A stretch of 64,000 nt of DNA from Deltaproteobacteria bacterium (GCA_009692615.1 SHYW01000001.1:14348-78347); one strand, 5' to 3'; shown: positions 19,129-56,534, counted from the first letter of the stretch. Numbers and translations: made by a program. Notes: a model not told the origin generated them from the sequence alone.

Positions 19129-20118
19129 ATGAAGTTAAGAAGTCTTATCGCGGTGTTCGTAAGTCTTGTGTTCACAACAGCTTCATTCGCCGCCGCGCAA
19201 CAGCCGGCAAAAATCCCGCGCATCGGTTACGTGTCGGGAACCGGTGACGCGATTAATCAGGGTCCCTACGTCGAGGCATTGCGCCGAGGTCTGCGCGAGC
19301 TCGGTCACGTCGAGGGGAAAAACTTCATAATCGAGTATCGCGGCGCCGAGGGGAAACTAGATCGTGTCCCAAGTCTCGTAACCGAGCTTCTGCAACTCAA
19401 GGTGGATATCCTTGTCGCGTCGATTCCCCAAGCAATCTTCGCGGCAAAGAAGGCAACCCAAGCGATTCCGATTGTTATGGTAACCGGTCTGGATCCTGTC
19501 GCGACTGGACTTGTCGATAGCTTGGCGCACCCCGGAGGAAATATCACTGGACTCGCCACACTGAGTCTGGAGTTAAGCGAGAAGCGACTGGCGTTGCTTA
19601 AGGAGGTCGTGCCGCGGGTATCGCGCGTTGGAGTTCTGCGGAATCCAACCGAGCAAGCTGGAATTATTGCTTTCAAAGAGTATGAAACCGCGGCGCGCAT
19701 TCACAAAGTCTAACTACGATCCCTTGACGTTCAAGGGCCAAACCCTGACTTAGAGGCGGCTTTTCAAAGCGCGGCCAAAGCACGCGTGGGCGCGCTCATC
19801 ACCGTCACGACCGCGCCTCTGCTGCTGCAGTCGGAGCGAATCGCCCAACTGGCCATTAAGCACCGCTTGCCTTCGATGTTCCAAGGCGCAACTTGGGTAG
19901 ATGCGGGCGACCTGATGTCTTACTCAAGCAATGATCTTGACGCTTTTCGCCGCGCCGCCACGTACATTCACAAAATTCTCAAAGGCACGAAGCCCGCTGA
20001 TATACCCGTTGAGCAGCCGATGAAGTTCGAGTTCGTGATCAACTTGAAGACGGCGAAGCTGATCGGGCTGAACATCGCGCAGTCGGTGCTGTTCCGGGCG
20101 GACCGGGTGAATCAGTGA
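19129..20118 (+). pseudogene. ABC transporter substrate-binding protein (ABC_sub_bind/PF04392-type) interrupted by a single in-frame TAA
   Basis: ORFs 19129..19713 and 19786..20118 are in the same frame. Read together they align end-to-end with intact paralog 20126..21133. The only disruption is the TAA at 19711..19713; it aligns with a Leu codon in the paralog. Confidence 0.7.
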
Positions 20119-20125
20119 AGAAGGC

Positions 20126-21133
20126 ATGAGGCATGAGGCGAAAGTAATGAGAAATCAGATGAAACGATTTATTTTAGTATTAGCCCTGAGTTATTTGTTC
20201 TCATCGCTTAACGGTTTGACGCTGGTCGGCGCCGCGGAAAAAGTTCCGCGCATCGGTATTCTTTTCATGGGCGGCAAAGATCAGCCGCATCTGGAATCGT
20301 TCAAGCAAGGTCTGCGCGCGCTTGGTTACACGGAGGGGAAAAACATTATCATCGAGTACCGCTACGCCGAAGGCAACCAGGACCGGCTCGGCGATCTTGC
20401 CGCCGAGTTGGTGCGCGACAAAGTCGATGTCATCGTTACCACCTCTGGGATCAGCGCCAACGCGGCTCGACGGGTAACCCAAACGCTACCGATCGTCATG
20501 ACCACCGGCGATCCACTTGAGTCGGGGCTTGCCGCGAGCCTGGCGAAACCGGGCGGAAACGTGACCGGCTTGAGCATCATGTTGGCCGACATGAGCGTCA
20601 AGCGGCTAGAGCTGCTTAAAGAATCCTTTCCCAAACGAACCCGCGTTGCGGCGCTGTGGAGCCCGGGCCAGCGCGAAGCGGTCATCGGATTTAAAGAAAC
20701 TGTAGATGCCGCCAAAGTTTTATCCTTACGTTTGCATCCGTTGGAAATAAAGTCGGCCGCTGATATCGACCCCGCGTTCGATGCGATGACCAAGGCGCGC
20801 GACAGTGCACTGGTGGTAATCCTGTCGCCGCTCGCCACGCTGAACTCGAAACGCATCGTCGAGCTCGCGCTTAAGCACCGTCTACCGGGAATCTATCCGA
20901 CTCGACAGTTTGTCGAGGAGGGCGGGCTGATGGCCTACGGCCCGTTGATCGGCGATCTGTACCGCCGCGCGGCAACCTATGTGGACAAAATTCTCAAAGG
21001 AAGAACGCCCGCCGACCTGCCCATCGAGCAGCCGATGAAATTCGATTTCGTCATCAGCCTGATAGCGGCCAAGCAGATCGGCGTGACGGTTGCGCCGAAT
21101 GTGCTGGTGCGGGCGCAGAGGGTGATTCGATGA
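20126..21133 (+). CDS. ABC transporter substrate-binding protein (ABC_sub_bind family, PF04392)
   Basis: Signal peptide, then RIGILFMGG...GKNIIIEYRYAEGN...PIVMTTGDP..GGNVTGLS, the hallmark order of this family. Intact 335 aa. Confidence 0.8.
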   Translation: MRHEAKVMRNQMKRFILVLALSYLFSSLNGLTLVGAAEKVPRIGILFMGGKDQPHLESFKQGLRALGYTEGKNIIIEYRYAEGNQDRLGDLAAELVRDKVDVIVTTSGISANAARRVTQTLPIVMTTGDPLESGLAASLAKPGGNVTGLSIMLADMSVKRLELLKESFPKRTRVAALWSPGQREAVIGFKETVDAAKVLSLRLHPLEIKSAADIDPAFDAMTKARDSALVVILSPLATLNSKRIVELALKHRLPGIYPTRQFVEEGGLMAYGPLIGDLYRRAATYVDKILKGRTPADLPIEQPMKFDFVISLIAAKQIGVTVAPNVLVRAQRVIR

Positions 21134-21171
21134 GCCGAGTCGTTAAGGGGATTGAGTAACGATTGCCAATA

Positions 21172-21624
21172 TCAGGGTCCGGGCGACGGCGTGAGTTTGG
21201 TTTCGAGTGCGGCGACTTCTTGTAAGGCAAGCCACTCGTCCGGGTTGAGCACGGAGATCGTAGCGGCATCGAAGTCTTTTTTGTTTCGGGTGATGAGATG
21301 ATTGACGGCGATCGATTCAGCGCTGACAAGTTGAATATTGTCTTCAAAGTCGGGGCCTGCAGCGATGATTGCCCGATCGAGGACGGCTTGACTCAAAGCT
21401 ACCAGATGAAGCCCACTCAAGATCGCTTGGGCGTCGGCACGCGCGGTAGTTTCGTCTACGACTCTGCGCCGAAAGAAATAAATCAAGGGCAATGTGAGCG
21501 CGGATGTCGAGCTCTCGATCTCTTGCGAGCGCCGCGCCAGGTTAAGCACACGGAGACTCTCTGTCCAACCGCGCCGCTTGGTCATCACGTCAATGAAGAC
21601 ATTGACGTCGATGAAAATCTTCAA
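21172..21624 (-). CDS. vapC: Type II toxin-antitoxin system VapC family toxin (PIN domain)
   Basis: MKIFIDVNVFIDV N-terminus with conserved acidic PIN residues. 4-bp overlap with the upstream small antitoxin ORF. Confidence 0.8.
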   Translation of the reverse strand: MKIFIDVNVFIDVMTKRRGWTESLRVLNLARRSQEIESSTSALTLPLIYFFRRRVVDETTARADAQAILSGLHLVALSQAVLDRAIIAAGPDFEDNIQLVSAESIAVNHLITRNKKDFDAATISVLNPDEWLALQEVAALETKLTPSPGP

Positions 21625-21911
21625 TCGGTTATTCTCCGCGCAACGATCTCACGAATCAGCGCCTTGTCGTCCTCGACGGGATTTGCCGGATGGATACCGA
21701 CTAGGGCAAGAAGATCAGGATCGATCGCCACGTCGCGACACGGCTTTGCTAACTCGTCGCGGTCGGTGTCGTTGTGTCGCGCTAGCGCTTCATCCCGCTC
21801 TTTTTGTTCAAGGAGGGAAAGCAGCTGGCGTTCGAGGGCGCGCAAGGTCGATGCATCCTCGTTGCGCACGAGCTTGAGCAACTCATTTACTTGTTCTGGT
21901 GTTTTACCCAT
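21621..21911 (-). CDS. Putative antitoxin partner of VapC (unclassified family)
   Basis: ~97 aa ORF directly upstream of vapC, overlapping it by 4 bp (ATGA). No recognisable RHH/AbrB/Phd signature. Confidence 0.5.
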   Translation of the reverse strand: MGKTPEQVNELLKLVRNEDASTLRALERQLLSLLEQKERDEALARHNDTDRDELAKPCRDVAIDPDLLALVGIHPANPVEDDKALIREIVARRITD

Positions 21912-22034
21912 GGTGGACCAGATTATAGACGGCGGCCTGACCAAGGGTCAAGCTCGCACTGGGCGTCGATAAGATATTCGCCAAGCAGATCGGCTTGAAA
22001 ATACCGCTATTGATTGTTGCCTCATGCCTATCGC

Positions 22035-23024
22035 CTATCTGCCAAACGCGCCGCTCTTTTCCAACTCGACCAAATAGCGCCGGTCTATCATGTCGGCGGG
22101 CTTGATCGCTTTGGCGCGCGCGTCGAGAGGCGCGATCTCGTCGAGGGACGCTTGCAGCGCGGCTTCATGAATTTCCAAACGTTGCTCCAGCGCGGGGATC
22201 TCGGATTGGTAGGCGGCATCGAGCACTTTGGTGTCGGTGATGCGCATGTATTTGCCGATCACCTTGTAAACGAAGGCTCGGTCCGTGTGCATGATTCTCG
22301 ACGCTTCCGCCATGGAGCGCATGAAGCGGCCGATGACCGGGCCGCGTTTGTTGATCAACGAGCGCAGGGTGACGACGCAGGTCGCGGCGTAGGGAATCTT
22401 GAGATCAAAACCGTTGACGACATAACGGTAGCCGCGAGACGCCACCTGAAAGTCTCCCGGCGCTACCAATCCAGCGGCGTCGACGTTGCCGCCGAGCAGC
22501 GCTGCGACCGTTTCCGGTCCGCCGCCGGTTTGAATGGTCTGAATGTCACGGCTGGCATCCATGCCCAAACGTTTCAGCGCTTGTACGACGAAAAAGTGGG
22601 TGTTGCCGCCGAAGCGGCCGACGGCGACTTTCTTGCCCTTGAGATCTTGCGGGCTCTTGATGTCGGCCTTGCCCATGATGCTGTGGGTTAAAAAATTTTT
22701 CATGCCGCCGATGAAGACTAGATCGGTGCTGCCTTGAACGATGGCGCGGACGTTGGCAACCGCGCCGGTGACGCCGATCTCGGCATCGCCGCTCAACGTC
22801 GCCGCGGTGGCGACCGGCGACGAGGGGATGAAAACTAAATTGAAGTCGAGATCGTATTTCTTGAACAGGCCGGCTTCCCGCGCGATCCAGGGCATCGACT
22901 GCGACAACACTTGCGCCGAGTGAAGACCGATCAACCGGTCCGCGGACCTGGCGTGTCTGGGACAGCCGATGGTCATGATGGAGACGAGCAGAATGGACAA
23001 TGAGATTTTGTCGGCGATTCGCAT
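22035..23024 (-). CDS. ABC transporter substrate-binding protein (NMT1/THI5-like, NitT/TauT/SsuA family)
   Basis: Signal peptide. MPWIAREAGLFKKYDLDF and the two-lobe NMT1 pattern. Paralogs at 38582, 39732 and 51304. Confidence 0.75.
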   Translation of the reverse strand: MRIADKISLSILLVSIMTIGCPRHARSADRLIGLHSAQVLSQSMPWIAREAGLFKKYDLDFNLVFIPSSPVATAATLSGDAEIGVTGAVANVRAIVQGSTDLVFIGGMKNFLTHSIMGKADIKSPQDLKGKKVAVGRFGGNTHFFVVQALKRLGMDASRDIQTIQTGGGPETVAALLGGNVDAAGLVAPGDFQVASRGYRYVVNGFDLKIPYAATCVVTLRSLINKRGPVIGRFMRSMAEASRIMHTDRAFVYKVIGKYMRITDTKVLDAAYQSEIPALEQRLEIHEAALQASLDEIAPLDARAKAIKPADMIDRRYLVELEKSGAFGR

Positions 23025-23038
23025 TTTCGTGGTCCTCC

Positions 23039-28819: not shown

Positions 28820-29242
28820 TCATTTGAGTTCGCCAGTCCACCGCGAAAAAATCGCACCACAGATTGCCCCGAAGGAATCGATCATGACATCCGCCAAGCT
28901 GGCGCTGCGGCTCGGCACGAAGGCTTGATGCCATTCGTCGCTCGCCGCGTAGATCGTTGCTATGACAATGCACCAGAGCCCGCGGACGATGGGCGATCGC
29001 TTGGGAAATTCCCGGCGCACAGCGCGGAGGAGCAAACTGGCGAGAATGAAATATTCGCTCCAGTGGCCGAGCTTGCGTAGAGTGAGATGGATGGCGGCGA
29101 ATTGTGCGGCGCTGAGGGCGGGAAATAGTGCGGCGAGTAGCGGTTCGAGCCAGGAGGCGGTGTTGGCGCCATAAAAATTATCGCCGGAGAAAAAGAAAAT
29201 CACCGCCATCCAACCGGCCACCGGTCCCCAGCTTTTCATCAT
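28820..29242 (-). CDS. VanZ family protein
   Basis: Four-TM small membrane protein with a VanZ-like pattern (..HLTLRKLGHWSEYFILASLL.. SDEWHQAFVPSRSASLADVMIDSFG). Confidence 0.6.
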   Translation of the reverse strand: MMKSWGPVAGWMAVIFFFSGDNFYGANTASWLEPLLAALFPALSAAQFAAIHLTLRKLGHWSEYFILASLLLRAVRREFPKRSPIVRGLWCIVIATIYAASDEWHQAFVPSRSASLADVMIDSFGAICGAIFSRWTGELK

Positions 29243-30516
29243 GCGCTAGCCGTCGCTTGAGCCGGCTTCGGTTGCAACAAGGCAAAATAAAGCAGCGCGG
29301 TCAGCCAGCAGATCGCCATCAAAGCCCAGTAAAGCATCTGGTAACTTCGCGTGCGGTCGTAGACAATGCCGGCGAGCAGCGGCCCGAGGACGCTGCCCCA
29401 AGTGTAGAGAAAGCTCATGCTGCCGCGAATCTTGGCGAAGTTGTGCCGGCCGAAAAAATCGCCGACGGTGGCCCAAGTAGTCGGAAACAATCCTTCGAAG
29501 ACGCTGAACAGCAACAGCGCAATCCACAGCTGCCATAGCTGTCTGCCGTTGAACAAAAAATAAATCGCCACGCTGCCGAGCAGCATGAAGCCGGCCATCA
29601 AGCGCGGTTTGTCGAAGCGATCGCCGAGCCAGCCGATCAATAAATGCGTCGGCATGCCGCAGATGGCGATGACGCTCAAATAAAAAGCTCCTTCGGTTTC
29701 CGAGTAGCCTTTCCAAACCAGGATCGGCACGAAGTGGACCAGTACGGCACTGGAGCAAGCGGCGCGCAGGGTGGTGGCGACGGTCAGCAGCCAAAATTGA
29801 TGGGTGTGGAGCGTTTGGCTGAGCGACAGCTCGCGCGCGGCGGTTGCCGTGGCGGTGTCACGATTTTCTTTCGTTTCGTTGAAACGTGCGGTATCGCCGT
29901 CGGACAATAATCCCAGGCTTTCGGGTGAACGGTGAACGCAAAACGCCAGCGGTAAGCCGACGAGGAGAAAGGCGATGCCGGAACCGATGGACGCGCTGCG
30001 CCAACCCCAGCTGTGTACTGCGTAGGCGAGAAACGGCGTTAGCAGCGCGCCGCCGAGGGCTATGGATCCGCTGGTGATCGACATGGCCAAGGCGCGTTTG
30101 CGGATGAACCAAGTGTTGGCCAACGCCATCGTCGCGTCCATGAAACCGGCTTGGTAGGGGAGCGAGATGATGCCCATGTAGACGATCAGCAGCATGGTGT
30201 AACTGTGCACACCGGCCAAGAGCAGGTAGCCGACGCCGGCCAGCGCGATGGCGATGGCGATCACCGGACGCGGCCCGTAGCGGTCGATGCAGTAACCGGC
30301 GACCGGTCCTTCCAAGGCGCCTTGGGCGCGCGCCAGCGAGAAGACCAGCGATGTCGCGGTGCGCGTCAGGCCCAGTTCTTCAGTCACCGGCAAAAAAAAC
30401 ACCGAGATGCCGTAGGCGTGCAAGCCGCCGCCGAGCACGCGGATGGCACAGCTGACCGCGATCATACGCCAGCCGAAGTAGAGGCCGCGGAGTTTGTCGG
30501 GAATTGCTTGAAACAT
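29239..30516 (-). CDS. MFS transporter
   Basis: 12-TM MFS topology (GLYFGWRMIAVSCAI...GPVAGYCIDRYGPRPV). Tandem paralog of the upstream gene; 1-nt stop/start overlap (TGATG). Confidence 0.8.
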   Translation of the reverse strand: MFQAIPDKLRGLYFGWRMIAVSCAIRVLGGGLHAYGISVFFLPVTEELGLTRTATSLVFSLARAQGALEGPVAGYCIDRYGPRPVIAIAIALAGVGYLLLAGVHSYTMLLIVYMGIISLPYQAGFMDATMALANTWFIRKRALAMSITSGSIALGGALLTPFLAYAVHSWGWRSASIGSGIAFLLVGLPLAFCVHRSPESLGLLSDGDTARFNETKENRDTATATAARELSLSQTLHTHQFWLLTVATTLRAACSSAVLVHFVPILVWKGYSETEGAFYLSVIAICGMPTHLLIGWLGDRFDKPRLMAGFMLLGSVAIYFLFNGRQLWQLWIALLLFSVFEGLFPTTWATVGDFFGRHNFAKIRGSMSFLYTWGSVLGPLLAGIVYDRTRSYQMLYWALMAICWLTALLYFALLQPKPAQATASA

Positions 30517-31835: not shown

Positions 31836-31941
31836 CCTATCCGAGGGAGGCGAAGTCTGTCAACGCGGTCTGCGAAAATCGCTGATAGCCGCGTTTCTGG
31901 GTTGTCGTTGGGTGAACGCACGAATGTCGCTGGGGGATTTT

Positions 31942-32017
31942 TTCACCACAGAGCACACAGAGAACACAGAGTTCGGAAAAGTATTTTCTCTGTGATCTCT
32001 GTGTGCTCTGTGGTGAA
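31942..32017. repeat. Hairpin element with CACAGAG-octamer stems and GTTCGGAAAA loop
   Basis: TTCACCACAGAGCACACAGAGAACACAGAG - TTCGGAAAAGTATTTT - CTCTGTGATCTCTGTGTGCTCTGTGGTGAA. The 30-bp stem has 1 mismatch. Between the MFS gene and the M24 peptidase gene. Confidence 0.75.
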
Positions 32018-32195
32018 TCAATCTTCGTTTTGAGACTAGATCCCTCACGTTCGTTCGGGATGACAATCTGGATAATGGCTTGCACCCCAGGTTGTCATTT
32101 CGACCGTAGGGAGAAATCTGTCCGGCTCCGGTGCGCTCGCCGTCATTCCCGTGTAAACGGCAATCAAGGTTCGTTTCTGGCAAAAAAGCTAAACT

Positions 32196-36358: not shown

Positions 36359-36452
36359 TCTCTAGCTTTCACCTTCCAGACCCTTTAGGGTCGGCACCTG
36401 TACGAGCTGACAAGAAGAGTTAGCGCTAGCGGACCAAGGTGAGGCAACTAAT

Positions 36453-37037
36453 ATGGTCAAATTATTTTGTCCGAACATCGTTGCCCGATTAACTTTTTTG
36501 ATTGTCTTCGCGACCACTTTCGCAGGCTGTCAGGATAAGTGGAAGGCACCCTGGCGACTAGATTCAAAGTACTCAGACTATCTGACAACAATGGCATGGG
36601 ATTATAAAATGATTGCAGGGCACGGCAGTGCTAACACGGTTGATGGCATGCTTATCTATAAGATAGGAGATAAAATTCCAAATGGGGCGAATCGAATTTT
36701 TAGTCTTGAAGAACTTTTTGAGCGGGACATTCTATATGAGAGCCGTGACAAGGAATTCATCCGAAAGTTTTTGGAAGCCGCGCAAGACGAAGTCAAGCCT
36801 ACGCCTACTGAAGCATGCCAAATTGATTGGAACGAAGCATCTTTACATGTGATTCTACTCGACAATACGTTTATGAGAGCAGGTTATTTCATATTTAGGA
36901 CATGTAAAAATGCGGACAACGGAACTGTGTTTACCATGCGCTTTACTCATTATCGCACAAAGTCGTTAGTTCCACTGATAAGGGCAATCGACCCTGTGCT
37001 GCATCACGATCCGCAGTTGCCATTATCCACGCGTTAG
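36453..37037 (+). CDS. Hypothetical lipoprotein encoded in a low-GC islet
   Basis: Lipobox FATTFAGC. The gene is ~45% GC against ~62% for neighbours. No recognisable domain. Confidence 0.5.
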   Translation: MVKLFCPNIVARLTFLIVFATTFAGCQDKWKAPWRLDSKYSDYLTTMAWDYKMIAGHGSANTVDGMLIYKIGDKIPNGANRIFSLEELFERDILYESRDKEFIRKFLEAAQDEVKPTPTEACQIDWNEASLHVILLDNTFMRAGYFIFRTCKNADNGTVFTMRFTHYRTKSLVPLIRAIDPVLHHDPQLPLSTR

Positions 37038-37039
37038 CT

Positions 37040-38480: not shown

Positions 38481-38564
38481 GTTCACCACGAAGCGCACGA
38501 AGGACACGAAGGGTTCGGATAATTTAATCTTCAACCTTCGTGATCTTCGTGTCCTTCGTGGTGA
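38481..38564. repeat. Hairpin element with CACGAAG-octamer stems and GTTCGGATA loop
   Basis: TTCACCACGAAGCGCACGAAGGACACGAAGG - GTTCGGATAATTTAATCTTCAA - CCTTCGTGATCTTCGTGTCCTTCGTGGTGAA. Between the amidohydrolase gene and the SBP pseudogene. Confidence 0.75.
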
Positions 38565-38581
38565 ATATCCTGTCTCATCGT

Positions 38582-39553
38582 TCAGCGCAGTTTGCGCCGC
38601 GCCTCGGCGAGAAACCCGTTTTCTTCGAGAGCGCGCACGAAGGCCGGGTTGTTGAGTTGGTTGATGTCGACCTGGGTGACTTTGGGATTGATCTTGGCGA
38701 CGATGCGCTGGACGATTTTCCAGGCGGCGGGATCGGGCATGAGTTCGATGGTCGCCATCTGGGTCAGCACTTTGTAGGAGGCTTCGGCGTCTTCGAGGCG
38801 CGGGAAACGAAAACTCTTGCGCAGGATCTCCGTAACGTCGGTTTTGGCTGCGGGGTCGTGGATCAGCAGGACGCTGTCGATCAGGCCCTTGAGCAAGCGC
38901 GTGATGGTGTCCGGCGAACTCGACGGCGTGTCGCGCAGAAAGCAAATGGTCGTGCCTTGATAGGGTATCGGTAGTTTGCCGATATCGGCGAGAACATTGG
39001 CGTCGACGCCGCCGTTGCCGAGGGCCTGGGTGACCGTGGCGGTGTCGCCGAGGATGCGCATTTTTAAATCGTACTTGTCCGCATCGATACCGAGAAAATC
39101 CAAAGCGATCATGGTCTGCAACCAAAAGCCGCCGCCGATGCTTTGCACGCCGAAGGTTTTGCCGCGCAACTCTTCCAGCGTGCGGATTTCTTTTCTTGCG
39201 ATTAGCTCCCGGGGAATCTTCTGCACCGGTGAGGCGACGCATTGCAATCGCATACCGCCGGCCGCGGCGCTGAGCGCGTTGGCCGGCGAGCCGTAGTTGT
39301 ATTGCACTTGGCCAGACGAGAGCGTCGCCATACTGAGCGAGCCGTTGCGCAGTTGCACGAGGCGAACGTCAAGGCCGTATTTTCTAAACGTGCCTCTCTC
39401 AATGCCGACCCACATGGGCCCGACGGTTTCGTTTTGGCCGGCGTAGGCGACGAGTGTCGGGCTCGGGGTTTGAGCATTCGCTACGCTTACGCCCGCCGTC
39501 TAGGCGATCATGACCGCGTTTAACGCTAAACGGATTTGCCGCTTCTGCTGCAT
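38582..39553 (-). pseudogene. NMT1/SsuA-family ABC substrate-binding protein with in-frame TAG inside the signal peptide
   Basis: ORF 38582..39415 starts at MWVGIERGTFRKYGLD, which aligns to the internal MPWIAxEAGLFxKYDLD of its paralogs. Manual upstream translation gives MQQKRQIRLALNAVMIA*TAGVSVANAQTPSPTLVAYAGQNETVGP-MWVG, with the TAG at 39500..39502 (minus strand) and ATG at 39553. Confidence 0.65.
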
Positions 39554-39731
39554 GGCGCGACCCTCTCGCGATGGGCAATGGGAACCGATTTCTGCCAGTA
39601 TACTGAAAAAGCCTGTAGGAGTCCTTCGACGAAGCTTAGGACGAACGGAGGGGATTTAAAATCATTGAAGATTTTCCGTTCATGCTGTGGCTCTCGAAGC
39701 ATTCCGAAACTTTTTTCAGCAATTTGCTAAA

Positions 39732-40742
39732 TCATTGCCAGAGCCGTTTGAAAAAACCGCTTTTCTCCAACTCGTCGACGTAACGGTTGTCGTAATAAGC
39801 TGTCAGTGGAGTCTTTTGCGCTGCCTGGCCATCGATCAACTTCAGACCGACGAGTTGCTCGGCGAGATCCTTGAAAACCTCAGGCGGCACGCGCGGGTCT
39901 TTGGCGAAGGCGTCGATGCCGGCCTGATAGCTTTCTTCGAGCATGATGGTGCGGCTAATTTTAGTGTACTTGCCGAGCACCTTGACGGCCAAGGCTTTAT
40001 CGTCGTGAATCTTCTTCAAGCCGTCGTACACCGCGGCGATGAAACGTTTGACCACATCGGCGTTCTTGTCGGCGTAGCCGCGCCGCGCGACGATGCCTTG
40101 TTCGATGAAACGGATATTCATGTCGCGGATCTGTTTGATGCTCACCAGCTCGCGAAAACCTTTTTCGCGCAGGACGACGCTTTGCGGCGCCGGAATCATG
40201 GCGCCGGCGATGGCGTTGGTGCTGAGCGCGGTCATGGACTCCGGATAGCCGCCGGTTTGCACGATGACGGCGTCGCTAACATTGGACCGGTCCAAGATCG
40301 CCTTCGCGGTGAAATGGGACACCGAGCCGAAGCGGGTTACGCCGACGGGCTTGCCGGACAATTGCCCGATTTGGGTAATCGACGGCTGGACGTAGAGCGG
40401 CACGCTGAAGGATTTCACCAACGCGGCGACTTGGATGACGTCGCCGCCCTTGAGCACGTTGGAAATCACCGCCGGACCCGCCATACCGGCGAGATCGGCT
40501 TCGCCGGCGAGCATCGACTGCACGATCATCGACGACGCTCCGGCGAATATCGGATCGACTTCCAAGCCATGCTTCTCGAACAGCCTCGCTTCATAGGCCA
40601 CTAGAAAAGGCAGGCTGTGATAGGAAATCGGTGAGTAGGGAAATTTAATCTTGTCGAGGGCGAACGTAGAGCCCGCGAAAATTAGCAGCGAAGCCAGTAA
40701 TGTCAGGGAGCGTAGCAAATTTTTCATTGATATTAACCTCAA
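39732..40742 (-). CDS. ABC transporter substrate-binding protein (NMT1/THI5-like)
   Basis: Intact 336 aa with signal peptide (MKNLLRSLTLLASLLIFAGSTFA). Same family as 22035, 38582 and 51304. Confidence 0.8.
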   Translation of the reverse strand: MRLISMKNLLRSLTLLASLLIFAGSTFALDKIKFPYSPISYHSLPFLVAYEARLFEKHGLEVDPIFAGASSMIVQSMLAGEADLAGMAGPAVISNVLKGGDVIQVAALVKSFSVPLYVQPSITQIGQLSGKPVGVTRFGSVSHFTAKAILDRSNVSDAVIVQTGGYPESMTALSTNAIAGAMIPAPQSVVLREKGFRELVSIKQIRDMNIRFIEQGIVARRGYADKNADVVKRFIAAVYDGLKKIHDDKALAVKVLGKYTKISRTIMLEESYQAGIDAFAKDPRVPPEVFKDLAEQLVGLKLIDGQAAQKTPLTAYYDNRYVDELEKSGFFKRLWQ

Positions 40743-41864: not shown

Positions 41865-42128
41865 GGTTCTGCCTCCCAATGCTTTGCATTTCCTCCTGCA
41901 TAGTGAAGCTTGGGGTCGGCTGTCAACAGCTGATCGGAATTGCTGTAAAAATTATTTCGCAGTAGACGCATCGGATGATTAGCCGCAAAGAGCGCAAACC
42001 GCACAAAAAAGGAATCGGAATCGTAGGAACAAGGCGTGCCTTGCCCCTGTGGCGGTGGTGGAATGTTCGTCCAGATTTGCTTGCGAAGACAAAAACCTTT
42101 GCGTAGGATCGACGCGGTTGGAGTTGTC

Positions 42129-44618: not shown

Positions 44619-45647
44619 TCAGTTTTGTTTGCGAAACAGCAGGACGGAAAACCATTGGTTGGGATCGGTGAAGTGGGCCACCGGCGCTAGGCCGAAGAAA
44701 CCCAACTGTTCTTGCAAGCGGTTGGGATCGAACTTGCGGCTGATCTCGACGAGGATATTTTCGTTTTCCTGCCATTCGAAATTCGCACCGCTATCGGCGA
44801 AGCGAATTCGTTGGCGGGCGGTGGCGACACCGTGCATTTCAATTTGCCGCCACTCGGGATTGAACCACGAGTCGTAGCGCATTCGTTCGACATCGAAGTT
44901 ACCGGCCATGCGCCGGTTGATGTTTTGAAAGACGTTTAAGATAAACTTGGCGGTGATGCCTCGGCTGTCGTTGTAGGCGGCTTCCAGGAGTTTCGGATCT
45001 TTGACGCGATCGGCGCCGAGCAGCAAATAATCGTTGGGCCCCATGGCCGCCGACAGGGCGCGAAAAAAGCGCGGGAAGTCGGTGAGATTGAAGTTGCCGA
45101 TGGTGCTGCCGAGAAAGACGAATAGGGTCGGCAGGTTTTTATCGATGGCGCCGAAGCCTGCTTCGTAGCGTGAGTGAATGCCGTGAAATTCGATTTGCGG
45201 AAAATCTTTTTGCACAGCGCTTTGCGATGCGAGCAGACCGGCGGCGCTGACATCGATGGGGGCAAAGATGCAATGGCGCCGTTGCGCCAGTTGCTCGGTG
45301 AGCAAATGGACGGTTTTCTTGCTGTAGCCGGCGCCGAGCTCGACGATGCATTCAACCGGCGCGCTGGCGATGATGTCTTTGGCGCGGGCTTCGAGGATGC
45401 TATTCTCCGTGCGGGTCAGATAATATTCCGGTAACTCGCAGATCTCTTCGAACAGTTCCGAGCCGGTGTCGTCATAAAGATGATAAGCTTCGAGCCAGCG
45501 CGGCTGATCCCAAAGGGTCGTCAAGATCGACATCGTCGGTGCGCCGTCGAGATCGGCGCCGGCTAACGACCAGATGCCGGGATGGTGCGAAAGCCAATGG
45601 AGTCGTTGCTCGGTGGCGAAAATACGTGGCGGTGTCGGTTGTTTCAT
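44619..45647 (-). CDS. egtD: L-histidine N-alpha-methyltransferase EgtD family (Methyltransf_33)
   Basis: LPEYYLTRTENSILEA, ECIVELGAGYSKKTVHLL (SAM site), FVFLGSTIGNF, YLLLGADRVKD, VEISRKF all match EgtD blocks. Likely start MKQPTPPRIF. Confidence 0.75.
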   Translation of the reverse strand: MKQPTPPRIFATEQRLHWLSHHPGIWSLAGADLDGAPTMSILTTLWDQPRWLEAYHLYDDTGSELFEEICELPEYYLTRTENSILEARAKDIIASAPVECIVELGAGYSKKTVHLLTEQLAQRRHCIFAPIDVSAAGLLASQSAVQKDFPQIEFHGIHSRYEAGFGAIDKNLPTLFVFLGSTIGNFNLTDFPRFFRALSAAMGPNDYLLLGADRVKDPKLLEAAYNDSRGITAKFILNVFQNINRRMAGNFDVERMRYDSWFNPEWRQIEMHGVATARQRIRFADSGANFEWQENENILVEISRKFDPNRLQEQLGFFGLAPVAHFTDPNQWFSVLLFRKQN

Positions 45648-45702
45648 GGACGGGGAGACTATAAAAGAAATTGACCAACGATGCGACCCCGAGCGAGCTT
45701 CA

Positions 45703-46470
45703 ATGTCTAATCCATCGAGCACGATAAAATTTCACGACGTCAATTTCGTACTGCCCGGCGGTAAGAAGCTGCTGGCCAATCTCAATCTCGACGTCGGCGC
45801 CGGCGAGACCTTGGTGTTACTCGGCCGTAGCGGCTCGGGCAAGACCACGACGATGAAACTGATCAATCGGTTGATCGATCCGACCTCGGGACGGCTGGAA
45901 GTTGAAGGCAAAGCGACAGTCGACTGGGATCCGATCCAACTGCGCCGGCGCATCGGCTACGTGATCCAAGAGATCGGTTTGTTTCCCCATCTGACCATCG
46001 AACAGAATATCGGCGTGGTGCCACGCTTGGAAGGCTGGGCCGCTGAACGCATTCAACTGCGTGCGCGCGAACTTTTAAATCTAGTTGGCCTAAACGCTGA
46101 CAGTTTTGCCGGCCGCTTTCCCAGGGAACTATCCGGCGGCCAGCGCCAACGAGTCGGCGTGGCGCGGGCGCTGGCCGCCGATCCGCCGGTGATTTTGCTC
46201 GACGAACCGTTCGGCGCCCTCGATCCAATCACCCGCCGCGAGATTCAACGGGAGTTCAAAAATCTCCAGCAGGAACTCGGCAAGACCATGGTTTTCGTCA
46301 CCCATGATATCGCCGAAGCGTTCGTGCTGGCCAATCGCATCGCCCTGCTCAAGGACGGCGAAATGATTTTACTTGGGCCGCCCGCCGAGTTGCTCGAATC
46401 GAACCATCCCGAGGCGCGCGCCTTCGCCGAGTGCTTTCACGACGGCCAGAATATAGCGAGGCCGGCGTGA
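45703..46470 (+). CDS. Glycine betaine/quaternary-amine type ABC transporter ATP-binding protein (OpuCA/EgtV-like, no CBS domain)
   Basis: Walker A GRSGSGKTT, signature LSGGQRQRVGVARAL, Walker B LLDEPFGALD. Divergent from egtD. Confidence 0.85.
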   Translation: MSNPSSTIKFHDVNFVLPGGKKLLANLNLDVGAGETLVLLGRSGSGKTTTMKLINRLIDPTSGRLEVEGKATVDWDPIQLRRRIGYVIQEIGLFPHLTIEQNIGVVPRLEGWAAERIQLRARELLNLVGLNADSFAGRFPRELSGGQRQRVGVARALAADPPVILLDEPFGALDPITRREIQREFKNLQQELGKTMVFVTHDIAEAFVLANRIALLKDGEMILLGPPAELLESNHPEARAFAECFHDGQNIARPA

Positions 46471-48041: not shown

Positions 48042-48347
48042 TCAGGCTGCGCGTTTTCGTTTTGGGCGTGGGGTAAAATGAATGGCGATACCAACGGCAT
48101 CCAAAATAGCCGCAAGTGATGAAAACTTTGGATTACCTTTTTCAGATAGCACGCGGTAAAGATTCTCGCGATTGAGCGCGGTTAGCTTCGAAAGTGCTCG
48201 AACTCCTCCTCCAGCTTCAACGACGTTACGAAGCCCGACAAAGAACACTTCTTCGGAGTCGTGGTAACAAGCATTAAGATATTCCGCGGCTTCATTGGGA
48301 TCGCGGAGCTGTTTGAGTAGTTCACTTTGATAGCTTCTTGTCGGCAT
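48042..48347 (-). CDS. Putative addiction module antidote protein (HigA-like, TIGR02684-type HTH)
   Basis: DPNEAAEYLNACYHDSEE...GGVRALSKLTALNRENLYRVLSEKGNPKFSSLAAILDAVG matches the family consensus. Lies downstream of and overlapping the killer gene. Confidence 0.7.
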   Translation of the reverse strand: MPTRSYQSELLKQLRDPNEAAEYLNACYHDSEEVFFVGLRNVVEAGGGVRALSKLTALNRENLYRVLSEKGNPKFSSLAAILDAVGIAIHFTPRPKRKRAA

Positions 48348-48675
48348 GATATTCCCTCCACAGTTTTTTGGCCTGCGCGATATCGCGCTTCTGCGAACCT
48401 TTGTCGCCGCCGCAGAGCAGCACAACCAAAAACAATCCATCAGGGCCGAAGTACACCCGGTATCCTGGGCCAAAGGCAATGCGCAATTCATGGACGCCGT
48501 CGCCGATGCTTTTGGAGTCTCCCAGGTTTCCGAGGCGAACACGGTCGAGTCGTGCGCGAATGGTGGCTCGCGCCTTTATGTCCTTGAGCTGATTTAGCCA
48601 ATCGAGAAACGGTATTTTTCCATCGATTGCCTCATAGATGAGAAGCTGCCGTTCCACGCGTGAATCGTAGCTCAA
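48322..48675 (-). CDS. Type II TA system RelE/ParE-superfamily toxin (addiction module killer protein, HigB-like)
   Basis: KIPFLDWLNQLKDIKARATIRARLDRVRLGNLGDSKSIGDGVHELRIAFGPGYRVYF is typical of TIGR02683. Toxin-first gene order. Confidence 0.75.
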   Translation of the reverse strand: MSYDSRVERQLLIYEAIDGKIPFLDWLNQLKDIKARATIRARLDRVRLGNLGDSKSIGDGVHELRIAFGPGYRVYFGPDGLFLVVLLCGGDKGSQKRDIAQAKKLWREYHADKKLSK

Positions 48676-50080: not shown

Positions 50081-51028
50081 CTAGTCGCTCGCGACAATTT
50101 TATTCGACAGCGCGCCGATCTTGGACGACGACACTTCGACGGTGTCGCCGACTTTCAAGAACAGATCGAGGGGCCGTTTGCCTTCGGCGCTGCGGCGCGA
50201 TTTATCCGCCGCGGTTCCGGCCGAGGTGCCGCCGGCGATGACGTCGCCGGGGACGAAGGTGAAATCTTGAGATAAATATTCCAACACTTCGCCGAAGTTC
50301 CAGATCATCTCGCTAGTGCTGTAGCTCTGACGCACCACGCCATTGATTCGCGTCTCGACGTCGACTTCTTGCTGGCCGGTTTCGCCGACGACGATGCACG
50401 GACCCATGGATGCGGCGCCGTCGAAGTTCTTTTGCAAATTATAGCTTACCGCGCGGTCGGTGCCGCCGCCGTCGCGAATCGACCAGTCGTGGAATAATGT
50501 CACGCCCCAGACATAGTCATTTACTTTGGCGGCGGAAATATTTTTGCCGCGCTTGCCGATGACGATTGCGACCTCGCCTTCATAGTCGAAATAAGTCACG
50601 CGCTTGGGAAATGGAATCTCGCCGCCCGGTCCGGCGACTTCGGCGGGAACTTTCCAAAATCCCCACTGGCCGGCCTTCTTCGCTTCCGCTGCGACTTCCT
50701 CGACGGTGATGTCGGTCTTGCCCAAGCGGTTAGCCCACATGCCGAGCAGATGATTGGCGTAGTTGCCGCCGACGCAAGCGATGCGCCGCTCGGGCCAGGG
50801 CGCGTGCAACTGAACGGCATTCAAAGCTTGGACAACACCATCACCGCCCGGCGCAGTATTACTGAACCGTTCGACGACCTGTTTGGCTTCCGCTAAGGCG
50901 GGTGCTCCAGCTTCGATAAAATCTAACAGCCGCGTCGGCAATTGCGACGAGCCGCGATTGAGATCGATGACGCGGTCATCCAACAAAGCGCCGACGCGCC
51001 GTTGCGGACCGAATACTACGATTTTCAT
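50081..51028 (-). CDS. Fumarylacetoacetate hydrolase (FAH) family protein
   Basis: MKIVVFGPQRRVGALLDDRVIDL N-terminus plus the FAH C-terminal fold with a metal-binding Glu/Asp pattern. Confidence 0.85.
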   Translation of the reverse strand: MKIVVFGPQRRVGALLDDRVIDLNRGSSQLPTRLLDFIEAGAPALAEAKQVVERFSNTAPGGDGVVQALNAVQLHAPWPERRIACVGGNYANHLLGMWANRLGKTDITVEEVAAEAKKAGQWGFWKVPAEVAGPGGEIPFPKRVTYFDYEGEVAIVIGKRGKNISAAKVNDYVWGVTLFHDWSIRDGGGTDRAVSYNLQKNFDGAASMGPCIVVGETGQQEVDVETRINGVVRQSYSTSEMIWNFGEVLEYLSQDFTFVPGDVIAGGTSAGTAADKSRRSAEGKRPLDLFLKVGDTVEVSSSKIGALSNKIVASD

Positions 51029-51183
51029 TTTCTCGCCTCCAAATTATTTCCGTGTGGATTGGCGTAACATCTCGGTCGGCTTTGGGTCAAGCGGTCGAAC
51101 ATCTTCGAATTAGGAGGTTGGCCGCACCCTTCGACCGGCTCAGGGCGATCGGGATGCAAAGGTCGCAAAGAACGTTCGGGATT

Positions 51184-51303: not shown

Positions 51304-52314
51304 GTGAGGGGAAATCCTGTCGTCCGCTTTTTGTTGATTTGGCGAGTTGTGAGTTTTTTTCTTTGGCTGTGGATGGGAACCGGCCTCGCCGCCGATAAGC
51401 TTGTCGGTTTTTATTCGGCGCGCACCATGTCGCAAGCGATGCCGTGGATCGCCGAGGAAGCCGGGCTGTTTCGCAAGTACGATTTGGATTTTCAGCTGCT
51501 TTACATTTCTTCCGCTCAAATGGTCACTGCCGCGATGCTCGGCGGCGACGCCCAGGTGGCGATCAGCGGCGGCGAAGCGATCGTGCGCGCGGTGGCCCAG
51601 GGCGCGAGCGATTTAGTTATTATCGCCAGCGCCAAGAATACGCTCACGCACAGCATTCTCGCCAAGCCGGAAATCAAGCGGCCGCAAGATTTAAAAGGCC
51701 GGCGCTTCGGTTTGTCGCGTCTCGGCAGCAACTCGCACTATTTCGTCGTGCAGGCGCTACGGCAATTCGGTATGGAGCCCAGCGATGTGAATATCATTCA
51801 GACCGGCGGCCAGGTGGAAAATCTTGCCGCCTTGTTCGGCGGCGCGGTGGATGCCGCGACGATGACCGGACCGTCGGGCGGGGCGCGGGCGTTGGCCTAA
51901 GGTTTTCGTTACGTCGTCTACGGTCCCGATCTACGCATTCCGTTCGCGGCGGCGACGCTGATCACGCGCCGGTCGATCTTGAATGCCCGCGGGCCGGTGA
52001 TCGAAAAATTCGTCCGCGCCTGCGCCGAAGCGATGAAACTCATGTTCACGGACAAAGAGCTGACTTACAAAGTCTTGGGCAAACAGCTGCGCATCACGGA
52101 CCGCAAAGTCTTGGACAGCGCCTATGACGAAGAGATAAAGGCGTTAGAGCCGCGCTTGGAATTCAAGCTAGAAGCGCTGCAGGCGATCATCGACGAGACC
52201 GCTAAGACCGACGCGCGGGTGAGAAAAATCAAGCCGATGGACCTGATCGACCGGCGCTATTTAGATTCGTTCAATAAGAGCGGATTCTTCGACAAGCTGT
52301 GGGCGGGGAAGTGA
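51304..52314 (+). pseudogene. NMT1/SsuA-family ABC substrate-binding protein interrupted by a single in-frame TAA
   Basis: ORFs 51304..51900 and 51979..52314 share a frame. Translation across the gap gives ...ALA*GFRYVVYGPDLRIPFAAATLITRRSILNARGPV, collinear with paralog 22035..23024 (..QVASRGYRYVVNGFDLKIPYAATCVVTLRSLINKRGPV..). GTG start after GGAGG. Confidence 0.65.
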
Positions 52315-52382
52315 ATCAAGCGATGAGGGTACTTGTCTCGCGAGGTTGTCCCCACCGATGCGGTTCTCTTCGCTCGCCGCAT

Positions 52383-52523
52383 CCTAACAGGCTGCTGAAA
52401 AAAGTGGAACATGCTTCGACAAGCTCAGCATGAATGGATTTTCTCTCAATGATTTCAATCTCCGATCCGTTCGTCCTGAGCTTGTCGAAGGACTCCGAAG
52501 GGTTTTTCAGCATCCTGCTAAGG
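52383..52523. repeat. MITE-like nested inverted repeat of the FDKLRTNG type
   Basis: Outer arms CCTAACAGGCTGCTGAAAAA / TTTTTCAGCATCCTGCTAAGG. Inner arms CTTCGACAAGCTCAGCATGAATGG / CCGTTCGTCCTGAGCTTGTCGAAGG. Produces the spurious ORF 52316..52513 containing SFDKLRTNG. Confidence 0.7.
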
Positions 52524-52524
52524 A

Positions 52525-53574
52525 CTAATTTGCCAGCATTTTGTTGACCCGCTCGGTGACTTCCTTGGGTTGGTCCATGACCTTTTTGATCAGCGTTTCC
52601 AGTTCGTCGCCGGGAGTCGGATCGACGTCCATTTTGGCTTTCTCGGTTTCCTTGAGCAGCTCGGTGTCTTTGAGCGCGTTGGCATAGGCGTCGCGCAGGA
52701 TTCTGATCCGGTCCACAGCGGTTCCCGGTATCGTTAGCATGGGCCGGCCCAACTCGCCGCCGGTCATGATCACATGTGCCACGCGCCGGCTGACCTCGGC
52801 GGATTTATATTCCTCGAACAATTCGTAGATGGTTGGCGTGTCAGGTAAGCGGGAGTCCCGTTTGCCGCCGGTCTGAACGATGTGGCGGTCGAAATCTTTG
52901 CGGTGCCAGCTATTGAAGGGCTCGCGGCCGAAGTGGGCGGAGATGTTGTGGGCGCGGCAAACCACCTCGCCTTTTTCCACGGCGAGATCGATTTCGGCGC
53001 CGCCCGGATAACCGATTACGTTATTGAATTTTGCGCCGATCGCATCCTCGAGCAGCTTTCCCAGCAAATAGTCGGTGCTGACGGTTCCTGACGAGCCGCA
53101 TTTCGGCGGCTCTTTCGCCTTGATGATATCTTTGATCGATTTATAGGGCGCGTCGCTGCGCATGTAGAGCAGCACGGTTTCACTGGCCGGCGAGCCGATC
53201 CAGGCGAACTTGCGGACATCGAACTGGACTTCTTTGCGCCCAACCAGCTGGTCCATGTAAATGTTGTACTGGACCATGCCGAGAGTGAGACCGTCGGGTT
53301 TGGCGACGTTGTAGACATAGTTCGCCGCCACCAGTGAGCCGGCGCCGGGCATGTTCTGGACGACAATTTCGGGGTTGCCAGCAATATACTTGGGCATGTA
53401 TTTGGCGAAGATGCGCGCCCAGCGATCGTAAAATCCACCCGGGGTCGAGCCCACTACCAGGCGAATGGATTTGCCTTTGTAGAACGGTTCCTGCGCCGAA
53501 AGGCGGCCGGCAAATACGAAATGGCAAAGAGAAGCAAACATGACGAACAGTAAGCCGACAGCAAGTTTCTTCAT
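52525..53574 (-). CDS. Tripartite tricarboxylate transporter substrate-binding protein (Bug/TctC family)
   Basis: Signal peptide; KSIRLVVGSTPGGFYDRWARI and MPGAGSLVAANYV. Paralog of 14495..15541. Confidence 0.8.
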   Translation of the reverse strand: MKKLAVGLLFVMFASLCHFVFAGRLSAQEPFYKGKSIRLVVGSTPGGFYDRWARIFAKYMPKYIAGNPEIVVQNMPGAGSLVAANYVYNVAKPDGLTLGMVQYNIYMDQLVGRKEVQFDVRKFAWIGSPASETVLLYMRSDAPYKSIKDIIKAKEPPKCGSSGTVSTDYLLGKLLEDAIGAKFNNVIGYPGGAEIDLAVEKGEVVCRAHNISAHFGREPFNSWHRKDFDRHIVQTGGKRDSRLPDTPTIYELFEEYKSAEVSRRVAHVIMTGGELGRPMLTIPGTAVDRIRILRDAYANALKDTELLKETEKAKMDVDPTPGDELETLIKKVMDQPKEVTERVNKMLAN

Positions 53575-53607
53575 GACACCTCCAAAATCAGATTCATGCC
53601 GAGAAGT

Positions 53608-54735: not shown

Positions 54736-54830
54736 GATGGCGCTCCTGATGGTTTAAAAATACAAAAAATTTATAATCGGGCCATACGGCTTTTTTGGCT
54801 AGGATTTAGTTTGTCGTCGTTCTTTCCTTT

Positions 54831-55259
54831 TCAACGCTTCGACGTCGGCCAGGTCTTGCGTCCGTGCGGCCGCGAGTTTTTTTTTATCAAGTGTTCTCTG
54901 GAGAGTACGGAGACCGGTTGATCGGCGAACTTCGAAATCAACCGGCCAGCCCAAGCTTCGGCGAACTGGACACCGTCGATTACGGTCAAGACGTCGATGC
55001 GTATGGGTTCAACGCCGATCTGAAAAATGAGGCCAGGTGTCGAATGGTCTTTCTCCGTCAGGTCATGCAACGGGGCGCCGAAGGCGCGGAGAGCTTCGAT
55101 GACTCGCGTCGCGTTTTCAGGGGAAGGACGGACCCAAACGTCGAGGTCTTGGGTGGCGCGGACATGACCATGCGCGGCCAAGGCGTGAGCACCGACGAGG
55201 AGAAATTCAACTTGCCGGCCGTTGAATTCTGCTAATAGATCTCTGAAGTCTTCGTTCAT
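54831..55259 (-). CDS. Nucleotidyltransferase-fold protein (MNT/DUF6036-like), possible TA component
   Basis: EFLLVGAHALAAHGHVRATQDLDVWV resembles the minimal nucleotidyltransferase of MNT-type antitoxins. Overlaps a 71-aa upstream ORF by ~50 bp. Confidence 0.45.
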   Translation of the reverse strand: MNEDFRDLLAEFNGRQVEFLLVGAHALAAHGHVRATQDLDVWVRPSPENATRVIEALRAFGAPLHDLTEKDHSTPGLIFQIGVEPIRIDVLTVIDGVQFAEAWAGRLISKFADQPVSVLSREHLIKKNSRPHGRKTWPTSKR

Positions 55260-55422
55260 GGACGTGGGCCGGTTGCCAAGCTAGGCAGAGCAGAGTCAAT
55301 TCCCAAACAGCGTTGATCCGCTCTTCGGGCGTAGCGTTATCCCAATGTTGCTCGTCGGGGACGGCAGCTCCGGGCCGTATGATGCGGGTAGTGATCTTCT
55401 TGCGTCCGTCCGGTTGGTTCAT
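55207..55422 (-). CDS. Small hypothetical protein upstream of and overlapping the NTase-like gene
   Basis: 71 aa, no recognised domain. Coding status is uncertain. Confidence 0.3.
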   Translation of the reverse strand: MNQPDGRKKITTRIIRPGAAVPDEQHWDNATPEERINAVWELTLLCLAWQPAHVHERRLQRSISRIQRPAS

Positions 55423-55542
55423 ACAGCGAGTTTATAGCACATTCCAAAAGGCACTTCTGCTCACTGCTCCGTTTTCTCGATCCACACTTTCGCGCCCCAT
55501 TCTTATACCCTCCCTTTGGGAGAGGGCTAGGGTGAGCGCACC

Positions 55543-56534
55543 TCACCTGATAATCTTAGTCCCCCGCGCCAGCACGTCGGTGTTGATGGTCACGCCGATC
55601 TTGTTTGCCGTCTGCAGGTTGATCACGAACTCAAACCTCATCGGCTGCTGCACCGGTAGTTCGGCGGGCTTGGTACCTTTTAAAATCTTGTCCACGTACC
55701 AGGCGATCTGACGGTGAGTTTCATCGAGGTCCGCTGCGTAGGACATCAGCCCGCCCGCTTCTACATCAAGTTTACTGCCGTACATCGACGGTAACCGGGA
55801 CTTTAACGCAAAGTTCGCGATACGTTTTCCGTTAGCCCCGAATAGCCCGCCCTGGAGCACGTAGAGTCCATCCGGGCGCTGCTTACTCATCGCGGCGAAA
55901 ACTTTCTCGAAATCGTCGACGCCTCGTACCTCCCAAGGCTGAAGAGTCAACTTCAGCGCACGCGCCACGTCTGGGAAATCCTTTTTCAGCAGGCGTTCAC
56001 TGGTGGATTGGCCGGTTCATAGAGAACCGCGACACGTTGAAGTTTTGGCAGCGCTTCTTTGAAGATTTCCAGCCTTTTGCTGGCTAGGTTTGTGCTAAGG
56101 TGGGCAATGCCCGTAACGTTGCCGCCGGGACGGGCAAGGCTTTTAATCAGACCAGAGTCGACTGGATCGAGTCCACCGCCCGTCATTACGATGGGAATCG
56201 TCTTGGTCGCTTCCATAACGGCCCGGATCCATTGGTACGCTCCAGCGACCACGATGACATCACAGTTGAGAGCGACTAACTCGGACGCAAGCTTGGGGGC
56301 TCGATCGAGGTTTGCCTCACCATATCGGTAGTCAATCGAGATGTTTTGTCCTTCCACATAACCTAGCTCGCGCAGTCGCTTACCGACTGCCTCGGAACGG
56401 GCGGACTCAGCAGATGGATAGGTGTTCGAAAGATACCCGATCCGGAAAAGTTTTTTTGGCTGCTGCGCGTGGGCGAGCGAAGCAGTAGTCAGAAACAAAG
56501 TTGCCAGTCGCCGGACGGCGGTTCTTCTGTTCAT
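55543..56534 (-). pseudogene. ABC_sub_bind (PF04392) substrate-binding protein disrupted by a frameshift
   Basis: The N-terminal ORF 55986..56534 (signal peptide..RVAVLYEPANPPVNAC*) and C-terminal ORF 55543..55968 are collinear with paralog 20126..21133 but in different frames. The switch lies at a T5/A5 homopolymer around 55982..55992; the alternative frame continues LLKKDFPDVARALKL. Confidence 0.6.

Follow-up and report, generated by a model that had tools for sequence, protein, structure and literature searches.

Disrupted binding-protein genes in a 64-kb genome region of an uncultured bacterium from deep Lake Baikal

We have analysed a 64-kb stretch of DNA (the window) from a 109,441-bp contig of a metagenome-assembled genome (MAG) deposited at NCBI with the label 'Deltaproteobacteria bacterium' (EXR70 locus tags), which comes from the deep water of Lake Baikal and has MAGs labelled Candidatus Binatia among its nearest relatives. 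The window contains four broken genes for periplasmic binding proteins, here labelled g1 to g4, of which g1 and g4 belong to the ABC_sub_bind family (PF04392) and g2 and g3 to the NMT1 family (PF09084). Their lesions are true alleles of a natural population and were seen at two depths and, in the case of g1, on two haplotypes. Most probably these are real pseudogenes, derived from genes for accessory orphan binding proteins by ordinary, recent and independent pseudogenisation.

The lesions and their recurrence in independent assemblies

The broken genes and their lesions are listed here with the kind of evidence used for each. Family assignments correspond to Pfam profile matches above the curated threshold (25.9 bits for PF04392), and statements about the closest homologues of g1, g2 and g4 come from a search of 5.8 billion clustered proteins.

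19129..20118, + strand: g1, ABC_sub_bind (PF04392) pseudogene (Pfam, homologue alignment)
19656, + strand: single-nucleotide polymorphism (SNP) splitting two natural haplotypes, A in the window and C in contig L089, giving Q176H (contig comparison)
19711..19713, + strand: g1 nonsense codon TAA (frame translation, homologue column)
38582..39553, - strand: g3, NMT1-family (PF09084) pseudogene with two lesions (Pfam, alignments)
39001..39002, - strand: g3 junction of a 48-nt in-frame deletion, with GCCA microhomology flanks (protein and DNA alignment)
39500..39502, - strand: g3 nonsense codon TAG (codon 18), falling in the hydrophobic core of a plausible signal peptide (translation, comparison with the relative P0423)
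51304..52314, + strand: g2, NMT1/NitT-TauT-type (PF09084) pseudogene with a GTG start (Pfam, homologue alignment)
51898..51900, + strand: g2 nonsense codon TAA (frame translation, homologue column)
55543..56534, - strand: g4, ABC_sub_bind (PF04392) pseudogene beside an intact livHMGF-type transporter operon (Pfam, alignment)
~56001..56003, - strand: g4 site of a 1-nt deletion (codon alignment to intact relatives)

The first-pass annotation of the window had assigned exactly one lesion to each of these genes. For g1 the proposed TAA at 19711 is indeed in frame, at 19711-19713, and the same frame is continuous on both sides of it. The stop is codon 195 and interrupts what would be a precursor of the family norm (~330 aa), leaving a 194-aa N-terminal product (MSP36884.1, EXR70_00155) and an orphan 110-aa C-terminal open reading frame (ORF). 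The Pfam match of 146.7 bits (PF04392 model positions 17-292 of 293) spans the stop, and intact homologues, the best of them 79% identical, align collinearly with g1 along its entire length of 329 aa. At the stop column the homologues have mostly Q, otherwise E, H or R, and the closest one has the codon GAG; this 79% homologue sits on a 1.5-kb contig, where gene order is not comparable.

The TAA proposed at 51898 in g2 is likewise real and in frame (51898-51900). As codon 199 it cuts the full-length frame, leaving a product of 198 aa and, beyond it, a remnant ORF of 111 aa, and the Pfam match (78.1 bits, PF09084 model positions 9-211 of 216) runs through it. The g2 homologues, all of them 336 aa long, form a highly conserved group, with a mean column identity of 80% and a best match of 88%. 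Eleven of 12 homologues have Q at the stop column and the remaining one K, and the codon in the orthologue is CAG. Two related loci, L083 and L084, contain in the same order an acyl-CoA dehydrogenase (ACAD) gene, an FAA hydrolase gene, an intact 336-aa NMT1 gene and an MR_MLE gene, and L084 continues past MR_MLE with an intact 331-aa ABC_sub_bind gene.

A single frameshift at a T5 homopolymer had been proposed for g4. The frame break is real, but it does not lie at the T5 run and is due instead to a 1-nt deletion at ~56001-56003. The gene measures 992 nt (3n+2) and consists of two ORFs in different frames, of 182 aa (MSP36922.1, EXR70_00350) and 141 aa, that match PF04392 with 83 and 61 bits at model positions 19-141 and 154-292. 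The T5 run (A5 on the coding strand) occupies 55982-55986; the TGA of the upstream frame takes the first A of the run, which in the downstream frame reads L-K-K as in the homologues. The missing base belongs to the codon after CCA, approximately codon 178, where the window has CCA CC- AGT and relatives have CCG GGC AAT or CCG GCC CAT. An uninterrupted precursor of ~330 aa is thus absent from g4, whereas relatives at 76-89% nucleotide identity have one single frame; the intact homologues are 330-331 aa long and up to 87-88% identical, and one related locus (L086) has livM, livG and livF together with an intact 330-aa ABC_sub_bind gene. By inspection, the N-termini of g1 and g4 are signal-like.

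The situation is different in g3, where the proposed TAG at 39500 does fall within a plausible Sec signal peptide (MQQKRQIRLALNAVMIA, followed by the stop and by TAGVSVANA, with Q after the cleavage point) but is not the only lesion. Sixteen conserved codons are also gone: the residues ATVIPYSFSEAAKRAG are present in all the g3 homologues aligned, from 86% down to 20% identity, and when the DNA is aligned to that of a related locus, L088, 48 nt prove to be cleanly missing, in frame, from between 39002 and 39001. Because of this deletion the Pfam match of g3 (47.3 bits) covers only PF09084 model positions 4-145 of 216. With a stop at codon 18 and 16 codons missing there is no uninterrupted full-length frame. 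The ATG at 39553 has a ribosome-binding site, GAGAGGG, ahead of it, and NCBI annotates the 277-aa ORF that restarts at a later ATG (38582..39415) as MSP36904.1. The g3 subfamily is much rarer than the others, with only 28 representatives at E < 1e-30, and its closest intact full-length member is 52% identical. In P0423, the sole close relative whose N-terminus can be aligned, the residue at the position of the stop is W, so the change would have been from TGG to TAG. The closest relatives of g3 also look disrupted, although the one inspected, L088, is from a long-read-style assembly that has unrelated neighbouring genes in fragments as well.

The reality of the lesions was assessed by exact-protein look-ups of the truncated products in independent public assemblies, rather than by read mapping. 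Two sources were informative. The first was the set of contigs of ENA analysis ERZ1305449, and the second the Logan contigs, which are assembled per run directly from the reads of that run, of SRR8561390 and SRR8561391, winter Lake Baikal metagenomes from 1250 m and 1350 m that belong to a study of ten metagenomes with its scaffolds at ENA under PRJEB37526 (PMC7678222). The truncated products of g1, g3 and g4 are each encoded on two ENA contigs of ERZ1305449 and that of g2 on one, and the gene order of these contigs agrees with the window. A Logan contig of SRR8561390 (L081) is 100% identical to window positions 18968-20040, across the TAA of g1, and one of SRR8561391 (L082) is 100% identical to positions 55620-57004, across the deletion of g4. 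The TAA of g1 is also present in a second haplotype, in contig L089 of SRR8561391, where it lies 55 nt downstream of the SNP at 19656; this second allele (Q176H), with the same TAA, was found both in SRR8561391 and in a 24.5-kb ENA contig. Since the same forms appear in the ENA contigs, in two Logan runs and on two g1 haplotypes, the lesions are alleles of the population. The lesions therefore recur in independent data and, for g2 and g4, intact syntenic orthologues exist; the best intact full-length homologues of g1 and g3 are 79% and 52% identical.

Gene class, age and cause of the lesions

The window has ~62 genes, ten of them for stand-alone binding proteins (three ABC_sub_bind, four NMT1, two TctC and one Peripla_BP_6). 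Lesions affect four of the ten and not one of the ~52 remaining genes (Fisher p = 3.8e-4, calculated post hoc on one window). Public gene calls, Pfam coverage, and split-ORF and tblastn scans all agree with the view that no other gene class in the window carries such lesions: the split-ORF scan of the window recovered only g1, g2, g4 and one antisense artefact, the tblastn scan found no further binding-protein remnants in the window, and the public gene calls contain no split genes in the ~10 kb upstream of it. The description of the four genes as paralogous is inexact: g1 and g4 are 45% and g2 and g3 26% identical, but the two Pfam families are unrelated and the ABC_sub_bind pair has no similarity to the NMT1 pair. 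Intact paralogues adjoin g1 and g3 but not g2 and g4. The intact binding-protein genes considered here are the following:

14495..15541, + strand: intact TctC-family binding-protein gene (Pfam)
20126..21133, + strand: intact ABC_sub_bind paralogue adjoining g1 and ~47% identical to it (Pfam, alignment); 328 aa in the public gene call
22035..23024, - strand: intact NMT1 paralogue, 55% identical to g2 (Pfam, alignment)
39732..40742, - strand: intact NMT1 paralogue adjoining g3 (Pfam)
52525..53574, - strand: intact TctC-family binding-protein gene (Pfam)
60124..61356, - strand: intact Peripla_BP_6 gene, cognate to the adjacent liv-type transporter (Pfam, gene calls)

None of g1 to g4 adjoins a cognate permease or ATPase gene, hence the term orphan, and the liv-type operon on the side of g4 has its own intact Peripla_BP_6 receptor. 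The enzyme genes that adjoin the broken ones (MBL-fold hydrolase, Amidohydro_2, FAA hydrolase and MR_MLE) are all intact.

Some apparent breaks were discarded. Two gaps in the ORF map, at 30.6-32.2 kb and 57.4-59.1 kb, turned out to be an intact second MFS gene and intact livG and livM, and a frame plot of third-position GC content (GC3) was too noisy to detect frame breaks. A split-gene scan of 88 related loci, covering all gene families, was swamped by false positives that arose where ORFs were extended from stop to stop or lay antisense; most breaks fell in L008, L020 and L088, long-read-style assemblies where unrelated genes are fragmented too. Three loci from MFD MAGs (L003, L008 and L020, ~1-20 kb each) have tandem arrays of up to ~8 ABC_sub_bind genes with the same MBL-fold neighbour. 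The genes of these arrays are often fragmented by frameshifts, and in L020 indel errors are inseparable from real decay.

The ratio of non-synonymous to synonymous substitution rates (dN/dS, pairwise Nei-Gojobori against the closest relatives) is 0.19 for the whole of g1, 0.14 for g2 and 0.23 for g4. For the part beyond the lesion the values are 0.11, 0.13 and, on small counts, 0.35, without a clear rise. Private changes at otherwise invariant columns number three in g1 and two in g2, within the range of intact homologues. The low ratios and the lack of a clear downstream rise identify the lesions in g1, g2 and g4 as recent; these genes were under purifying selection until recently, and their inactivation is recent relative to the divergence from their relatives. 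With two lesions, g3 may be older than the other three. The first-pass annotation had suggested the ongoing decay of a large paralogue family, and while gene decay is genuine, the genes belong to two unrelated families, the observation covers 64 kb, and they are not recent duplicates in the course of decay: g1, g2 and g4 have intact counterparts 79-88% identical in other organisms.

A single mutational step separates each nonsense codon from a codon for the residue of the homologues (Q or E in g1, Q in g2, W in g3), and the implied changes in g2 and g3 are GC-to-AT transitions. The lesions are independent, ordinary spontaneous hits, namely two changes of a Gln/Glu codon to TAA, one of TGG to TAG, one 1-nt deletion and one 48-nt deletion between GCCA microrepeats. 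The truncated products would be without a signal peptide (g3) or without ~40% of the two-lobe fold (g1, g2 and g4), and so would presumably be unable to act as periplasmic receptors. Such lesions might be kept because each of many substrate-specific receptors would be individually dispensable in an ultra-oligotrophic water column, while essential, single-copy neighbour genes would not tolerate similar hits. A filter of dispensability, not a targeted mechanism, could in this way concentrate lesions in one gene class, the probable setting being a natural, low-diversity population of an uncultured deep-Baikal bacterium.

Selection, polymorphism, artefact and recoding

Another possibility, which we find unlikely, is that the losses were adaptive and that positive selection for saving the cost of receptors, where their substrates do not occur in the deep pelagic zone, raised the lesions to high frequency. 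The fact that only binding-protein genes are hit while the neighbouring enzyme genes are intact favours this idea, as do the alleles common to both depths and two haplotypes, and binding proteins are among the most highly expressed proteins of oligotrophic bacteria. The closest intact relatives, besides, were sampled in other environments and belong among others to JGI metagenomes and Danish MFD MAGs. A more specific version, just as doubtful, would be a class-specific streamlining in progress, with a lineage whose relatives live mainly in soil and sediment shedding costly orphan binding proteins one after another since colonising deep Baikal, and null alleles that swept. Selection would fit with the intact enzyme neighbours and with alleles that occur at both depths and on two haplotypes, but these do not demonstrate it, and four events are too few to tell selection from drift plus dispensability. 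Moreover, three of the four genes are stopped in the middle and their N-terminal half would still be translated, making the saving partial.

A second alternative, which we consider quite improbable, is that the broken alleles are real and intact ones coexist with them, the assemblies displaying only the majority allele. At least two haplotypes are present and ERZ1305449 contains duplicate contigs per locus, both of which would fit with such a polymorphism. However, every contig recovered, in all the assemblies, has the broken form, the closest intact proteins among the 5.8 billion clustered proteins are only 79-88% identical, and, as weak evidence, the Logan contigs are continuous through the lesion sites of g1 and g4. 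Pattern scans of JGI metagenomes for intact g2 and g4 alleles gave no match, in a collection that is probably without Baikal data.

That the lesions are artefacts of assembly, polishing or consensus, and exist in no real cell, now seems extremely unlikely. In favour of artefacts, a coding sequence that looks interrupted in a draft genome or MAG is frequently an error, and the related long-read MAG loci L008, L020 and L088 have many fragmented genes; the first-pass annotation itself had offered variants collapsed into the consensus as an option. This option fails with the exact match of the per-run Logan contigs across the lesions of g1 and g4. The same sequence is found in the NCBI MAG, in the ENA scaffolds and, at 100% identity, in the Logan contigs of two runs, and the other run has the TAA of g1 on a second haplotype. 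Substitutions, as opposed to homopolymer indels, account for three of the lesions, and the 1-base deletion lies outside a homopolymer. In addition, the SNPs of one codon would be phased within one k-mer, which makes a chimeric codon implausible.

Recoding, in which full-length proteins would be made through a suppressor tRNA, pyrrolysine or readthrough and, for g4, programmed -1 frameshifting, can practically be dismissed. In its favour, all four genes have TGA as their natural end, a codon that differs from the internal TAA, TAA and TAG, and the remainder of g1, g2 and g4 shows no further decay. But 29 of the 49 intact genes of the window end in TAA or TAG (TGA 20, TAG 15, TAA 14), in agreement with where the Pfam models stop. 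Ordinary sense codons stand at the stop sites in intact relatives, with a full codon at the g4 site, and g3 additionally lacks the 16 conserved codons. This confirms the earlier argument from normal termination of yebC (TAG), ruvC (TAG) and ruvA (TAA), each at the end of its Pfam model; in-frame stops are confined to g1-g3 in the window. The tRNA and Rfam scans found no tRNA genes and no Rfam families in the 64 kb. No slippery X XXY YYZ heptamer exists at the g4 shift, where the sequence is C CAC CAG and the relatives are single-frame, and the A5 run is downstream of the stop of the 0 frame. A variant in which TAA and TAG are partly read through, with the genes down-regulated rather than dead, is much less likely. 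Phase variation and transcriptional slippage were rejected as well, with lesions located outside repeats and homopolymers and the A5 run after the stop, and so was a diversity-generating retroelement, as the window has no reverse transcriptase.

Several points weigh against our preferred reading, ordinary and recent pseudogenisation. The independent samples are at least two, and the ENA contigs may share some of their samples with the Logan runs. The lesions are read from assemblies and an intact minor allele may coexist with them. The bias towards one kind of gene is a post hoc observation that the rest of the genome may not bear out, the territory covered being 64 kb of genome plus the gene calls for ~10 kb upstream. 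The intact state of the adjoining enzyme genes is not predicted if the pathways were simply no longer needed, and may indicate selection acting specifically on the binding proteins. Finally, the loss of function of the products of g1 to g4 is predicted from their sequences.

Other features of the window and comparison with known systems

Several other features of the window deserve mention. One ORF at 7044-8342 (+ strand) has a receiver domain of the response-regulator type at its N-terminus (residues 16-125), fused to an LpxC deacetylase domain that is complete (161-426). It comes directly after an NtrY-like histidine kinase (4794-7043), and the same 426-aa fusion is found on an ENA contig; a phospho-regulated LpxC, if real, would be unusual. 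Intergenic hairpins resembling repetitive extragenic palindromes (REP-like repeats), e.g. TTCACCACAGAGCACACAGAG.../...CTCTGTGTGCTCTGTGGTGAA, are located at 31936-32023, 38482-38565, 18065-18199 and 8847-8942, with more at ~39526-39702, 51025-51170 and 52316-52513. Some of them flank g2 and g3 and one ENA contig seems to end at the repeat near 52.4 kb, but no tie between the repeats and the lesions was seen. A low-GC island (36358-37271, 48% GC in a window of 57.6%) that was possibly acquired horizontally contains a lipoprotein-like ORF (36411..37037) with the lipobox FAGC.

Two tandem intact MFS paralogues (29239-30516 and 30516-31835, - strand), with ~72% nucleotide identity over 300 nt, are arranged head to tail with overlapping stop and start, a duplicated transporter pair without decay. 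Pairs resembling toxin-antitoxin systems are interspersed among the binding-protein genes, at 21172-21947 (PIN_3 and a 96-aa partner), 48042-48657 (dnstrm_HI1420-family and a 111-aa partner) and 54831-55422 (an unassigned 142-aa/71-aa pair). In L084 the slot between MR_MLE and the orthologue of g4 holds a ParE/PhdYeFM pair, and two ENA contigs differ in their gene calls there. A short FGE-sulfatase gene (252 aa) is found near a Methyltransf_33 (EgtD-like) gene (42027-42932 and 44619-45731), with LysE and fatty-acid desaturase genes between them; together they might form a pair of the ergothioneine type whose EgtB-like member is unusually short.

The results have some practical consequences for annotation. 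The fragments of g1 and g4 were deposited as 'hypothetical protein' and that of g3 as 'ABC transporter substrate-binding protein' (MSP36884.1, MSP36922.1 and MSP36904.1, window positions 19129-19713, 55986-56534 and 38582-39415, for g1, g4 and g3), and all should be annotated as pseudogenes. The in-frame stops of this MAG were verified as natural alleles by means of exact-protein look-ups, without read mapping. Should the bias be genome-wide, this population would offer a convenient natural case of the shrinkage of a receptor repertoire after a change of habitat. A literature search on pseudogenisation specific to binding proteins found nothing relevant.

Orphan binding proteins have expanded in Bordetella, where they are of the Bug/TctC type, and similar expansions exist in other uncultured lineages. 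The window resembles them in its stand-alone binding-protein genes without permeases, often near catabolic genes and here ten of ~62 genes, but the broken ones belong to PF04392 and PF09084 and both TctC genes of the window are intact. Stop-codon reassignment, or pyrrolysine at TAG, would also place in-frame TAA and TAG codons inside well-conserved frames; here, in contrast, these codons terminate normally, only three genes are affected, the homologues have Q, E or W at the sites and the window is without tRNA genes. A further comparison is with the prokaryotic pseudogenes surveyed by Liu et al. 2004 (Genome Biol 5:R64, PMC522871), which make up 1-5% of gene-like sequences and among which large transport families rank highest (PMC522871). 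As in g1 to g4, they are single-copy genes disrupted by nonsense codons or frameshifts that have intact counterparts elsewhere. In our case, by contrast, the local density is high (4 of 10 binding-protein genes, or 4 of ~62 genes overall), the lesions belong to a free-living organism of the plankton instead of a host-restricted pathogen, only the receptor has been hit and not the ATPase or permease, and the alleles are those of a natural population and not of one isolate. The event is of a known kind, and these four genes are a new example of ordinary gene decay.

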